A stretch of 64,000 nucleotides of DNA, taken from the NCBI GenBank assembly GCA_964016885.1, contig OZ024741.1, positions 117,986,001 through 118,050,000 of the forward strand, written 5' to 3'. The DNA is from Eledone cirrhosa (lineage: Eukaryota). The notes under the pieces are model-generated. The model was not told where the DNA came from, made no database searches, and saw only the letters and a program-made list of their open reading frames with translations. A program made the translations under genes and the position numbers. Positions 8,531-45,909 of this stretch are shown here, in pieces. Positions within the stretch are counted from its first letter, which is position 1, and each line of letters starts with the position of its first letter.

Positions 8531-9262
8531 GCAATCAACCTGTATGCAATCTTAGATTTTGGAGAAAGAAATAAAGACGTGATGGTCATACATGGAATGT
8601 CTTTATTTATAGGTCTGTTTTCTCAATCAGGACAGACTTGGAATGAAACAATGAAACCACTAGTTCTCATGTCTAAAAAGGAGTTTTATGTGGTCACTCA
8701 ACCTGCTAGAAATATCAGTCAAACCTGTTTTTAATCACACTCCTTCACCTTTAAAAAAGGACATATTGGAAACATTTATTCCGCAATCCCATTTGATTGG
8801 GAGATATTTTAACAACTTCTTTTTTCATTGAATTGTTTTTGTCAAACTGCTAAGTTAAGGGACATAAATACAGGTTCAGATATAAACACAGACATGGACA
8901 CACACACATATATATAATTGTTGCTACGTTTGTCACAAGGCCAGCAATTATCCAGTGCATTACTGGTGCTTTATTTTATTGACCCCGTAAGGATGAAAGG
9001 CAAAGTTAACTTCAGTGGGATTTGAACACATATAGATAGCATAATATAATAATTGTTTCTACATTTGGCATAAGGCCAGCAATTATCCCGGTGCATTACT
9101 GGTACTTTATTTTATCGACCCCGTAAGGACGAAAGGCAAAGTTAACCGTGTCAGGATTTTAACTCAGACCGGACACAACTCTTTGCTGGAAAGCATGGTG
9201 TCTGACACTCTACCGATACTGCCAGATATAATATAATGTGTGTGGTGTGTATGTGTATAGAC

Positions 9263-9358
9263 GTGTCCGAGGAACCTGCGAGTCCAGAGTCAGGTCGATC
9301 CATACACAGATCACACCTCAAGCTGTTCGCACGGGAAACAATTGTAACACACAATAAA
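9263..9358 (+). ncRNA. Variant hammerhead (CCGAGGA core, expanded stem II)
   Basis: GTGT-CCGAGGA-aCCTGCGA...TCGCAcGG-GAAA-CAATTG-TA-ACAC-acAATAAA; palindromic stem III ACAATTGT. Confidence 0.65.
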
Positions 9359-9412
9359 TTGAGTTCCGATGCATCACTGATTTTTCATTTTCCATTCTAT
9401 ATATATATAGGG

Positions 9413-9631
9413 GCCTAAGTCGGGGGACAGTGACGAAGGCCTGTAACCGGTTCCGAGGCCGCCTTGAGGCCGTCATCAAAGCCAATGGCGGCTTTGTTGA
9501 GTGAGATCAAAAGAACAAGTCATGAAGACAAACTGACCCAAGTTTGATAAATAAATCTTAAAAAAATAAAACTACTGTGTTACTTTTTCCTAGACAGTAA
9601 TCTTGCGAACAAATATCGTCCGCATCCTGTA
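9413..9631 (+). mobile_element. Tc1/mariner 3' remnant
   Basis: VTKACNRFRGRLEAVIKANGGFVE* is a typical Tc1/mariner transposase C-terminus; ends ...CATCCTG followed by TA. Confidence 0.75.
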
Positions 9632-9640
9632 TATATATAT

Positions 9641-10527
9641 ATATCACGATAGATTAACGGAGCCATAGACTCTCACTATTCCCTGTCAATAATGTGCTCA
9701 AAGGGGAAGGAATCCTGAGCTCTTTAAAATACAATATGTTGAAAAGGTAACACACTAGAGAGAGATAGTGCGCCATCAATAAAACAGGGAAAAACCACCA
9801 GTGTATGGAATCTATAACCTATGAAAGGCAGGGTAGACACACAGTAATTAAAAATATAAATTATTGTATTTTAAAGAGCTCAGGATTCCTTCTCGTTTGA
9901 GCACATTATTGACAGAGAATAACGTGATATTTCGCTCCTTATAACAGTCTTTCCTCTCTCTCTGTTTGGTTGAGCACACTCCTCTGAGTGGTTTTGGGCT
10001 TCCCTTTCTAACAGCTCGTTCCTCAGACACCACTGGTTGCTTGTCCTAAACCCGCTGTGACTTCTCTCCCACGTGTAGCTGGACAGTCGCTTTAAATTCT
10101 CTTAGAGTTGTTTGAAATGCATAGCCTTACACACGCTGATGAACCATGGGCTATTTATTTCTGTCAACAAATTATTGGCGAAACAGATCTCTTTGGATTT
10201 GTACGTGTGTGTTATATAGTTATAGAGGTTTGTATATACACTTTAATTTATATTTTTAATTACTGTGTATCTACCCTGCCTGTTATAAGGAGTGAAATAT
10301 CACGATAGATTAACGGAGCCATAGACTCTCGCTATTCCCTGTCAATAATGTGCTCAAAGGAGAAGGAATCCTGAGCTCTTTAAAATACAATAATTTATAT
10401 TTTTAATTACTGTGTGTCTACCCTGCCTTTCATAGGTTATAGACTCCATACACTGGTGGTTTTTCCCTGTTTTATTGATGGCCCACTATCTCTCTCTAGT
10501 GTGTTACCTTTTCAACATATTGTATTA
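9641..10527 (+). mobile_element. Non-coding hammerhead-bearing element with nested direct and inverted repeats, inserted in (TA)n
   Basis: Direct repeat 9641-9736 / 10297-10392. Inverted repeats 9728-9921 / 10333-10527 and 9923-9947 / 10280-10304. Short direct repeat 10246-10281 / 10392-10428. Hammerhead in the unique core. Confidence 0.75.
10129..10210 (+). ncRNA. Type I hammerhead ribozyme with a full stem III
   Basis: ACACACG-CTGATGA-aCCA...TGGc-GAAA-CAGATCT cttt GGATTTG-TA-CGTGTGT. 7-bp stem I, 8-bp stem III including G-U pairs, GUA cleavage triplet (cut after 10203). Confidence 0.85.
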
Positions 10528-10779
10528 TATATATATATGTGTAATAAAAGACTGATACTTTTCAAAAAATATGATAGAAAAATATAAAGGCAAATAATGA
10601 CAAATAAAAGAAAGTAATGTTTTACCCAGTATATTTCAGGGCTATTACCCTTTTTTTAAATGTAGAGCTGAAACAGTTCAAAACAAAACAAACAATCAAT
10701 GTGTTCTTCCTTAACTGGCTTATGTGTCTGAAATATACATGCATGAAGTCACTATAGTAACCAGTCTGCTTTGTGCATT

Positions 10780-15942: not shown

Positions 15943-15994
15943 GAACTTGCAACTTATGAAAAGATGGGTGACCGAGTTCAAATTACTCCTGAAG
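15943..15994 (+). CDS. SAT1/SAT2: Internal coding exon (equivalent of exon 2) of a spermidine/spermine (diamine) N-acetyltransferase, GNAT family
   Basis: tattttcAG|GAACTT...CCTGAAG|GTatta; 52 nt encoding ELATYEKMGDRVQITPE+G. Matches human SAT1 ELAKYEYMEEQVILTEKD and SAT2 ELAEFEKLSDQVKISEE (recalled sequences). Phase 0 to phase 1, joins in frame to the exon at 63689. Confidence 0.9.
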
Positions 15995-32194: not shown

Positions 32195-35100
32195 TTGGTT
32201 GTATACCAACACCTCAGTATGCAGATTGGAGCACTCGACGAAGTGCGCAGGTTGGTTTGGTTACTCCGGAGTAATGTAAAATAAAATAAAATAAATAAGT
32301 CAAATGTTTAAAATTTAGCTTCGTTTATTACTGCTATATATATTTCAGTGACAGCCATCATTGGCTGTGACCTCTTCAGGCAGTCCGAATTAGTGTGGTA
32401 TAGACAAGTACATATGTTGTTGAGGTGTATATCTTTGTCAATACTCTGATATGCCCAGTTCCTGGTTGGGTTGTTATTTCACTGAGAAACTGGAATCATA
32501 TGAATTCAAACAAACGAATTTCAGTGTCAAAGGCCTCTTCTCCTCTCATTGGTCAGTTGTTAGAACATTCCTCATTCAAAAGTCTATAGAAATTCGTTCT
32601 GAGGCAAGCCAATCTGTAGTTGTTGTCCTTGTTATTACTATTACGTACATCTGACCTCAATTCTTGTGTTGGTATGTTGTTATTGTTGGAGTTAGGTAAA
32701 AAAAATTGATAAAGTGGTAGAAGGAATAAGATGGTAAAGGAACAAAATAACAAAAAAATGTCAAACTTCCCATTGGTCAGTTTTGAGAGCATCCCTCAGT
32801 CCAAAGTCTAGAAATTCTTTCTGGGGTGAGGCTCCCTGTAGTGTTTGTGTTTGCTATTGTTAAGTACATCTGACCTCTACCCTTATTTTGGTAGTGTTGT
32901 TGGTGTTGTGTTTCTTCATCCCTCCTGCCACCATCTCCCGTGGTGGTGGTGGTGGGGGGGGGGGGGGTTCTTCCATGTATATGAAGAAATATAAGGCAAT
33001 AAAATGATTCAAATAAAGTAAGATAAAGTGTGTGTGTGCTATAACCAATCTCAATGTCAGAAATATGTTGGATAGATTGGTATGAGGAACAAGATGGTAA
33101 AAGAATAAGATAATCAAATAAAATGTGTTTGTGTTATAACCAATCTCAACTTAAAAATAAATGTAAGGTGATAAAGTGAAGAGAACAGAAATCAAATAAC
33201 AAATTAATGAGAAATCAAGATTTAAAAATTGAAAAATTGAAAAATCACAAATCAAGTAAATTAAAATGTGTGTGTTATAAAGATGTTGGCCAAATTATAA
33301 TGGCTGTGTCAGAATCAATCTCTAGGCTATCATGGTGTCTGCTCAGCCTGGGTTGGTCCTTATGGCTTGAGGGGAGTTCCAATCTAGGGTGTTGTTATTG
33401 CCCATATAGCTTGAGGGAGGTCTGGCCGAGAGGTGTCTACATGTTCTGGAGAAGTCCCTATAGCTTGAGGGGAGTCCACATCTTCTTGTGTTGCTTCGGT
33501 CCATATATCTTGAGGAAGGTCCCAGCCCTGAGGTGTCTGCATGTCCCGAAGAAGTCGGTTCTGAGGTTTATCATGCCGCTTCCACCTCTTAGTATCTCGA
33601 GGGTCTCGTTCAGGCATAGTTTGCATATGCAAGATCCCCTTTTATCGGGTGGTACTTTCCTGATTATGTACCAGGCCAGAGAGTACGGGGTCCTGTCCAG
33701 CTTAAGCTTCCAGATCAGGTCGGAGAGAGCCGTGCTTTTTCTTTTGGCCTCCTTATTGAAGGAATGGCGATGGTTGTGCCAGCGGTCTTTAAAGCTCGTT
33801 GATGTCGCTCCTATGTAGAGGTGTTCGGAGTTGGGAGTTTTAACCCTACAACCGTATATTAGGTTCTTCTTAAGGCATTCATTACCAAGGGGGCATGATT
33901 CGGGGTTTCTGCAGTTGCAGAGGGTGGTCGACCTCTGCGTGCCTAGATTGGGGTTCCCGTTAGGTGTTACATGGCGGTCTTCCCCCAGGTATGGTGGGGG
34001 GTCCGCGGGTCTGTTTGGGTTTCTTGGGTGGGCACTGGGTCTCCCCTTCCCTCCTTTCACATGGTTCTGCTGAGTGCTTGTATTGCCATCTTCTGGTTGT
34101 GTGTGGTTTTTAAGCCTACTCCTGTTGATGCTAGCTATGTGTTGGGCCAGATTTCTCGTGGTGGAATACGAGAGCTTCACAGTGTGTCTGTTGAAGATCC
34201 TGTGGTATCTATGGTCCCTCGGGAAGCATTTATCAAGTGCTCCAAAGAATGATCGGGCCAAGCTGTTCTTTAGGGCCGCTGAGTAGGGTGGGTTGTACCA
34301 CATGATTTTTCTGTGTCTCCTCGTATATGTGTGGATCGGGGGCGTTGTGAGTTGTTGGAGATTTGTTGGGTTGCTGGTGGTTCCCGCACTGTTGCTTTCC
34401 CTTTGGGCGCTATGCGTTTTGCTATCTTCACGGCCCGAATCTGTGGAGTGGTCCGCCATTCCCCCCCCCCACGTGTCCTGCGGTTGTGATCGTGGGTCCT
34501 GGGGTGGTTAGCGTCACCCCTGAGACTGCTACTCATATTGGGTTTCATCTCATGGTTAAGCGTACTAGTCACCAACGCCCGTGTGGTGGTGACGGGCTCA
34601 TGGTGCCTATTTGTTTCTGTTCTGCCTGTATTGTTAGGGTTTCCCCCCCCCCCCCGGGCAACGCGGGTGTGGGTGTCCGTTAAGCCATCCCCATCCCGGC
34701 GTTTCGGACTATATGTTATATTTTGGCCATGTGCCGCCTTATTTAGAGCTGCGTTGTAATATTCCGCATTGTTATCGAATATTTCCTTACTTGCGGACAG
34801 GCTGGAGATCCTGTCCGAGACACTCTTCACCACGGCCTTGGTTATGGATCTAGGGTGGTTTGATTTGGCGTTAACATACACGAGTTTCTCGTTGGGCTTG
34901 TGGTAGGTGTAGTATTGTTCGGTGTTCAGGTTTAGGGTGGTGTCTAGGAAGTTAACTACCTTCCTATTTGGGTCTAGTTCTATACTGAGCCCCTGGTTCT
35001 TAAAGGAATGGCGAATACGCCTCCTCATTCCCTCCAACATATTGGTGCTGTGGTCATATACTGTGAATAGAGCATCGTCACGATATAATCTGCCGCCCAG

Positions 35101-35785
35101 GCAGGGGATTTCATCTTTTATCTGCTTCAGCAGGAAGAGCCCAACCAGGTCCGTTACCTGTGCTGAGTCACTGGAGCCCATCGTGATGTCAAAGTTATTT
35201 AGCCAATCACTCCTGGTCCATAGGTCTCCATCGAAATGGATTACAGTCTTTCTTGCGGCATGGATGATGCTCACCTCCTCGGGTTAGGTCCGTATTGGAC
35301 ATCGCTAAAAATAGGGCCTTATTGAGTACTATGGGTGAGATTGAGGAGTAGTAGCTTGCGATATCCAATTGTATAAAGCTGGTCTTACTTTTCTCATGTA
35401 GTATCTTAAACCATTCTATTACTTCTCCCGTGCATGACCATTGCTGTAATTTAGTTTTCTTCCGAAGCTTGGGCAAAATCCTATCTAGTATTCTTTTACT
35501 GACGATCCCTAGGTCAGATCTGGAGGGGGCTATTAGTCTGACAGGGAGGTCGGACTCAAAGTTTGGCTTGTGATCTTTAAGGGTATTCTGCGGCTCCCTT
35601 GTTTGGTATGGGGCCGTCCTGTCCTCTATGCCGAGTCTAGATATAATCCTGTAAGCTGTGGCATTGATCTCATCCAGGGTAGATCCAGGATTTTTTTTGT
35701 AGCACTTCCTCAGTTCCCTGAAAATTAGCTTATTATACAGTTCAGTGTTCATGTTGTAGAGGTTGTTGGTTTTGTCAGCAAAATG
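32195..35785 (-). mobile_element. Penelope-like retroelement (RT plus C-terminal GIY-YIG endonuclease), 5'-truncated and frameshifted, with 3' UTR/pLTR
   Basis: Three overlapping minus ORFs: 35752-35207 (FIQLDIASYYSSI, RT motif A); 35274-34270 (FDITMGSSDSAQVTDLVG, LYRDD, VNFLDTTLNL, YHKPN...SNHP); 34459-33458 (WYNPPYS, CNCR..CPL..CL, IYG...YIG, FKDRWHNH, CKLCLNE, CRH). Flanked by TA-rich tracts; hammerhead and AATAAA lie downstream. Confidence 0.92.
32330..32384 (-). ncRNA. Type I minimal hammerhead ribozyme in the Penelope 3' region
   Basis: Minus strand: ACTGC-CTGAAGA-GGTCACAGCCA atga TGGCTGTCACT-GAAA-TATATA-TA-GCAGT-AATAAA. 5-bp stem I, long stem II, palindromic stem III. Confidence 0.85.
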
Positions 35786-35828
35786 TATGTATATATATAT
35801 ATATATAGGTATATATGTGTATATATAT

Positions 35829-45579: not shown

Positions 45580-45909
45580 ATTTCATTTTACGTCCACTTT
45601 TCCCTGCTTGCAAGGGTGGGACGGGAACTGATGCTGGCTTGATTTCTACAGCTGGATGCCCTTCCTAACACCAACCTCATTTACAGTGAGTGCTGGGTGC
45701 TTTTTTGCCGTGGCACCTCCACGACCACTTTGCAGTGGAATGATATGGACCCCAGTCCCTATCATCTCATTTCTACAGCTGAGTAAACTGGAGCAATGTG
45801 AAATAAAGTGTCTTACTCAAGGAAACAACACATCACCCAGTCTGAGAATTGAACTCACAACCTTTCGATTGCAAGGCCAATGCTCTAACCACTAAGCCAT
45901 GTGCCTCCA
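45580..45909 (-). mobile_element. tRNA-head/CORE-type SINE with RTE-derived 3' tail; further copies 23370-23795 and 48964-49449
   Basis: Minus strand: A box TGGCTTAGTGG, B box GAGTTCAATTC, CORE-like CCTTGAGYAAGACACTT, then the RTE 3' UTR (48-bp unit, TTAGGAAGGGCATCCAGC, GGACGTAAAATGA). Confidence 0.8.

Follow-up and report, generated by a model that had tools for sequence, protein, structure and literature searches.

Units of metazoan retrozymes measure 150–450 bp in the available text of Cervera and de la Pena 2020 (PMC7229834) and 51–972 bp in that of Li, Clavereau and Pollet 2026 (10.64898/2026.07.22.740005), and in both the mobilisation of animal retrozymes by PLEs is stated as an open question. 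A further question stated as open is how PLEs form their tandem and inverted structures (PMC8557442, in its available sections). According to the sections of Frangieh et al. 2024 (PMC11167929) considered here, the tail of PLEs is the segment bounded by two internal RT start sites, and in vitro the Poseidon element of Anolis (PAc) has both strands nicked and extended, hammerhead cleavage being unneeded. Ngaro elements, as far as the consulted part of PMC9210276 describes them, have a fixed family layout, A1...B1-A2-B2.

The element described here occupies positions 9641–10527 of the window, which is the whole stretch of 64,000 nucleotides of Eledone cirrhosa DNA that was analysed, and is a copy of a retrozyme-like family of dispersed, non-coding 539-nt units with one type I hammerhead each, which is present in hundreds of TA microsatellites and in which position 1 is the first base after the predicted cut. 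The original prediction of a retrozyme-like element is supported in this form, as a copy of a dispersed non-coding hammerhead family. The genome (3.0 Gb) contains 241 exact matches to a 16-nt hammerhead motif and 126 to a 29-mer, and the initial genome-wide searches returned 3276 and 2457 candidates. From three lists 114 loci were mapped (47 + 27 + 40): the 47 best-scoring loci (60 fetched, 13 duplicates removed), 27 loci from the list of 29-mer matches (30 fetched, 3 duplicates removed) and a replicate set of 40 further loci taken among the first 100 entries in the list of 241 hammerhead-motif matches. All 114 resolve into the 539-nt unit; over the first 74 loci the copies diverge on average by 3.8% from the majority. 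At L022 and L121 a head-to-tail arm includes two hammerheads, the 887-bp copy having one. No paper on octopus hammerhead repeats was found in the open-access literature, and supplements, Repbase or Dfam may already list the family.

The outer ends of the insertions lie at one of two sites 88 nt apart, the short site S (~175) or the long site L (~263), in 162 of 190 cases at the 114 loci, and TA-rich sequence adjoins 146 of these 162 ends versus a background of 9.4% at random places. Head-to-head arms occur in 68/122 insertions and more than two segments in 9/122. Among the scorable pairs, which are those with both ends at S or L (20 head-to-head insertions with another type of end were excluded, as was a mirror duplicate at L021), 43 of 48 combine one S and one L end (p = 7e-9), and this pairing is found in 30/34 discovery loci and in 13/14 replicate loci; the rule is broken by 5/48 pairs, and L/L pairs make up 3/48 of the same-family pairs. 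The family shows features of PLE type, namely 5′ truncation, partial tandems, an inverted 5′ copy and a bias for (TA)n targets like that of Neptune and Naiad; in particular, the combination of a partial tandem, an inverted truncated copy and a tail at one end is the signature of PLEs in the description available in PMC8557442. Template switching and a PLE-type inverted and tandem structure, already put forward for this element, are supported.

The features of the locus are the following, in coordinates of the window and positions of the 539-nt unit:

9630..9640, no strand: left (TA)n target tract, read from the sequence
9641..9863, minus strand: inverted arm S1, unit 263 to 41, with the long site L and its 88-nt tail at the outer end
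9850..9880, no strand: first copy of the private 41/168 junction, from the genome junction search
9862..10287, plus strand: main sense arm S2, unit 168–539 then 1 to ~78, from unit mapping
near 9920, plus strand: 27-nt deletion in S2 (unit 226–252), from unit mapping
10128..10211, plus strand: type I hammerhead motif, cut predicted after 10203
10271..10292, plus strand: private 78/280 junction, with short, imperfect microhomology
10280..10392, minus strand: extra inverted segment S3, unit 280 to 168, which copies 9862–9947 without the 27-nt deletion
10376..10403, no strand: second copy, inverted, of the private 41/168 junction, from the genome junction search
10391..10527, plus strand: sense segment S4, unit 41–175, with the short site S and no tail at the outer end
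10528..10539, no strand: right (TA)n target tract, read from the sequence
15943..15994, plus strand: presumed exon of a spermidine/spermine N1-acetyltransferase-like (SAT-like) gene, from resemblance and splice phase, the element lying in the upstream intron

The layout of the 887-bp copy is inverted 263 to 41, sense 168 to 539 and 1 to ~78, inverted 280 to 168 and sense 41 to 175, both outer ends being the family-standard L and S sites. The few-mismatch repeats claimed in both orientations are all present in the computed list: direct repeats of 96 nt (98%; 9641–9736/10297–10392) and 44 nt (93%; 10244–10287/10391–10434), and inverted repeats of 203 nt (97%; 9725–9927/10327–10529, in the ungapped form), 60 nt (9677–9736/9862–9921), 44 nt (9820–9863/10244–10287) and 28 nt (9920–9947/10280–10307). 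Once gapped, the long inverted repeat extends over 9728–9947 versus 10280–10527, with the 27-nt deletion in the left arm; this refines the ~190-bp inverted repeat said to enclose the ribozyme, and the predicted fold of the whole element is one long hairpin. The description as a non-coding unit set in (TA)n also stands, short (TA)n tracts being located at both ends and no open frame of at least 90 aa being present in 9641–10527.

Without ~148 bp the 887-bp copy is an ordinary head-to-head insertion, and the extra piece is the central junction reverse-copied. The assembly-wide junction search (at most 1 mismatch) gave two matches for the 41/168 junction and one for the 78/280 junction, all inside the 887-bp copy, and the layout is absent from the other 113 mapped loci; the architecture, which the original prediction had left between fixed and unique, is unique (1/114 loci) and not fixed in the family. 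The nested repeat pattern is a one-off scar, and the 539-nt unit with its two fixed ends accounts for most of it with two events. None of the 6 private substitutions is common to S1 and S4 or to S2 and S3, the overlaps having only subfamily variants in common, which indicates that S3 was copied at or soon after insertion.

A type I hammerhead with a 7-bp stem I and an 8-bp stem III had been proposed and is borne out by a descriptor match, the sole one in the 64-kb window, with 0 matches in 60 shuffled windows. Stem I is formed by 10129–10135/10204–10210 (7 bp, or 8 counting a U·G) and the core by 10136–10142 and 10180–10183, with the cut predicted after A10203; stem III has 8 bp, and 3 bp of stem II come after an A·C at 10.1/11.1. 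The hammerhead is unrecognised by Rfam at the gathering and E<=5 thresholds. For the active fold in isolation the predicted energy is -15.9 kcal/mol, 6.8 kcal/mol above that of the best fold (-22.7), so that the predicted fold would disfavour the cleavage-active form. In the 539-nt family A is found at 10.1 in 74/74 covering segments and C at 11.1 in 72/79, which identifies the A·C pair as the family state and not as damage; G10.1, once regarded as something to restore, loses this role. There are 69 complete hammerhead stretches across 63/74 loci, with an intact core in 52/69, and the stem I covariation consists of a single subfamily-level change from A-U to G-C in 3/69 stretches, too little to count. 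A splice donor at the cleavage triplet is not claimed, since the GUH cut site supplies GT regardless.

The reading that we prefer, and consider quite probable, is that the 887-bp copy is a member of the 539-nt family, likely inserted in trans by a Neptune-type PLE and then likely rearranged once by a template switch at the DNA level. A partial-tandem copy would be transcribed into an RNA that often starts at the hammerhead cut and whose inner hammerhead stays uncut, and the PLE protein would nick both strands of a (TA)n tract, as suggested by the flanks and by the consulted sections of PMC11167929. Two RTs, probably on one RNA, would start at 263 and 175, one per side of the break, a mechanism suggested by the observed pattern of ends; one start site per break side leaves a tail at one end only. 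In the structure seen, the presumed cDNAs are joined head to head as inverted 263 to 41 and sense 168 to 539 and 1 to 175. During fill-in or early repair the growing strand may have quit its template at unit ~78 and reverse-copied the central junction of the left arm (280 to 168, then 41 to 78), the right arm being rejoined by homology with a gain of ~148 bp; from this would result the duplicate of the junction, the direct repeat of 44 nt, the 'split' repeat of 96 nt and the lengthened hairpin. The 27-nt deletion would have arisen in S2 and not in its copy S3.

One insertion event would explain why the junction is doubled, why the outer ends are the standard L and S sites and why 27 nt are deleted, if the four-segment form had been copied from a source locus with both odd junctions, the cDNAs having met in unit 168–280 and the deletion being an imprecise joint; this is unlikely, as neither junction occurs elsewhere in the assembly with at most 1 mismatch and the source would have to be lost or unassembled. 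The extra segments might also derive from the assembly process, because PLE tandem and inverted insertions trouble assemblers (PMC8557442, in its available text) and no independent read or contig spans the odd junctions: these and the unique flank are bridged by no listed contig or RAD read of the other family-bearing samples, which are possibly insertion-free. Such an artefact appears nonetheless very improbable, given that the repeated segments differ from one another by substitutions and by the 27-nt deletion, that the total is 887 bp and that both outer ends are standard. Split direct repeats had moreover suggested a Ngaro/PAT affinity, and the left-end 96-nt direct repeat does recur near the right end; however, a non-autonomous Ngaro/PAT or DIRS tyrosine-recombinase element has practically no credit here, because a fixed layout is required (PMC9210276, consulted part) and the present one is private to a single insertion (1/114 loci, with junction matches of 2 and 1, all in the 887-bp copy), truncation makes the inner ends variable, and both a hammerhead and a tail are present in the family.

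The form of the RNA template is reflected in the arm lengths. Arms longer than one unit, which read through an intact hammerhead, are 30/91 L arms and 13/71 S arms (43/162), and 3/71 S arms cross two hammerheads, which calls for a template that is longer or circular, or else for a jump. These arms speak for a circular monomer that the reverse transcriptase copies by rolling, the scheme put forward for metazoan retrozymes, with the same family and enzyme; the 539-nt unit also folds better than shuffles (z -4.1), and the available text of PMC7229834 demonstrates circles of the retrozymes of coral, mussel and axolotl. The circle would nonetheless have to accommodate the absence of any arm of two full units in the 114 loci and the clustering of the L arms at 764–803, with 0/91 passing the second hammerhead site and 9 coming within 100 nt of it, a limit that a slowdown after one turn could imitate. 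In addition, the predicted fold disfavours cleavage, and some 5′ ends lie at the cut (6/133 at no more than 3 nt, 5 of them independent, the test null being uniform and the sampling not). A circular template is possible, with doubt prevailing, and the arm lengths point rather to a linear RNA of partial-tandem form whose inner hammerhead is uncut. An A-to-I scar test gave equal A>G and T>C rates (ratio 1.07, p = 0.47).

Other loci of the family present particular structures. Inner breakpoints recur at unit 499 and 367 (L065, L069, L079 and L121); L069 and L079 have an identical junction, and at L069 both ends are short and a TA tract is absent. At L021:522–2046 a head-to-head insertion is mirror-duplicated across a flank of ~220 bp, a second case of a reverse-copied junction, and at L114:1090–1430 an arm that begins at the cut is preceded by same-sense sequence of another hammerhead family, possibly through an RT jump between RNAs.

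As for the candidate enzyme, a GIY-YIG search of the genome gave 10,596 candidates, and long ORFs with RT plus GIY-YIG at the C-terminus were confirmed at three loci; the CxxxxCxxC linker and the TA flanks point to the Neptune clade according to the description available in PMC8557442. No sequence shared with the 539-nt unit beyond chance was found in 70 GIY-YIG loci of the 10,596 candidates, L035 being a neighbouring separate insertion. A direct head-to-head join of an arm of the 539-nt family to a coding Neptune-type end is present at L116, and two ends of this kind are also seen in one young coding Neptune-type family. Three coding copies have their TA-joined end shortly before an AG and the start codon, and position 263 of the retrozyme unit lies 17 nt before an AG. 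A 5′-UTR intron is known for PLEs, and this arrangement looks like a candidate for it.

Several related elements were also observed. A very young coding Neptune-type family (L094, L104 and L143–L172; 920 candidates) has two ends and a minimal hammerhead, and 40 scored copies of the L094-type family are ~100% identical over 311 nt. Near-complete Neptune-type ORFs are located at L091:3809–6622 (minus strand) and L093:1988–5062 (plus strand), with open frames of 938 and 1025 aa; they have RT and GIY-YIG, and their pseudo-LTRs end in (TA)n. L092:6010–6919 is a tandem of a 459-nt unit whose type I hammerhead is a different one, and the tandem ends in (TA)n. In the window, 33461–35827 on the minus strand contains broken RT frames with a DD motif that we take to be of PLE type, possibly Naiad.

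Among 31 loci with a non-TA 5′ flank read by eye, 5 join directly to an inverted arm of another family that extends as far as a TA tract, so that two RNAs can apparently serve in one insertion. The partner is a ~430-nt hammerhead family with ends 56 nt apart at L017, L029 and L208, the coding Neptune-type family at L116 and another hammerhead family at L233. The foreign arm is at its long site in 5/5 and the 539-nt family arm at L in 4/5; both arms are at the long site in 4/5 mixed versus 3/48 same-family pairs (p = 6e-4), the mixed pairs being few and eye-picked, with a complex joint at L029 and two candidates, L112 and L241, unassigned. Mixed pairs may derive from an insertion that landed next to an older element, the TA tract being lost; they fit start-site exclusion on one common RNA, as weak evidence. 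Two RTs on one RNA would have to take different start sites, whereas with the RNAs of two families both could take the long site, and one Neptune-type enzyme would then serve several unrelated retrozyme families and could fuse them at a single break; we advance this tentatively, as a proposal a little short of an even chance. In the open-access literature no paper on mixed head-to-head PLE insertions was found. The ~430-nt hammerhead family (L249, L017:2030–2700 and L242–L271) has an internal TA tract and 6865 exact matches to a 28-mer, and 10/10 of its head-to-head pairs read by eye (28 loci) have one end of each kind, short/short pairs being unsampled.

In the host, the 887-bp element lies in sense in a 62.7-kb intron between exon 1 (G000:C2:117939184) and exon 15943–15994, which we take to be exons of the SAT-like gene on the basis of resemblance and matching splice phase. 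The sense orientation upstream of the 15943 exon, as predicted originally, is retained, the exon being present on the same strand. The downstream last exon matches the PDB diamine acetyltransferase 1 (E 9e-7), and the middle exons were not found by a motif search. The hairpin and hammerhead predicted on the sense strand could influence the host transcript. Elsewhere in the window, 9250–9410 is a piece of another repeat that ends in a TA tract and resembles the flank of L210, and 45838–45901 on the minus strand is a tRNA-like match slightly over the Rfam cut-off, probably the head of a SINE.

The 539-nt family bears on both questions stated as open, the formation of tandem and inverted PLE structures and the mobilisation of animal retrozymes by PLEs. 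It offers a short RNA on which two start sites are mapped, and it supplies a replicated pair count, pairs of mixed family and a limit on arm length that does not speak for the circle. The prediction is that on one RNA the strands start at different sites and that, given two RNAs, each strand begins at the long site; if this is true, the family is a genome-scale read-out of the formation of PLE head-to-head insertions.

As far as the available text of the cited papers goes, the family resembles metazoan non-LTR retrozymes in its non-coding low-GC unit, its single type I hammerhead per unit, its head-to-tail units and the co-occurrence of PLEs; its 539 nt are inside the range of 51–972 bp (10.64898/2026.07.22.740005) and above that of 150–450 bp (PMC7229834). 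In contrast to the long tandem arrays of retrozymes, it consists of dispersed insertions under two units, and these sources contain no description, for retrozymes, of arms set head to head, of a pair of fixed ends or of (TA)n as a target. With the EN+ PLEs of the Neptune clade, in the accessible sections of Craig et al. 2021 (PMC8557442) and Arkhipova et al. 2013 (PMC3846280), it shares 5′ truncation, partial tandems, an inverted truncated 5′ copy, a one-end tail, microsatellite bias, a hammerhead upstream of the fixed ends and fold-back junctions, while it differs from them in having no ORF, a tail of 88 nt versus 30–40 bp and a long stem III versus a minimal hammerhead. The terminal direct repeat that reappears internally near the opposite end recalls Ngaro/PAT elements as described in the consulted part of PMC9210276, but here it belongs to no fixed family layout and arises from one private junction duplication. 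The comparison with PAc in vitro, within the sections of Frangieh et al. 2024 (PMC11167929) considered, is close as regards the two internal RT starts that bound the tail and the AT-rich targets; for PAc, however, no difference in start site was seen between the strands, pairing within a single event lying outside that study, whereas the two ends of one insertion of the 539-nt family are almost always different sites. Both start sites of the family, moreover, have TA-like letters at their end, and these could base-pair with the target.
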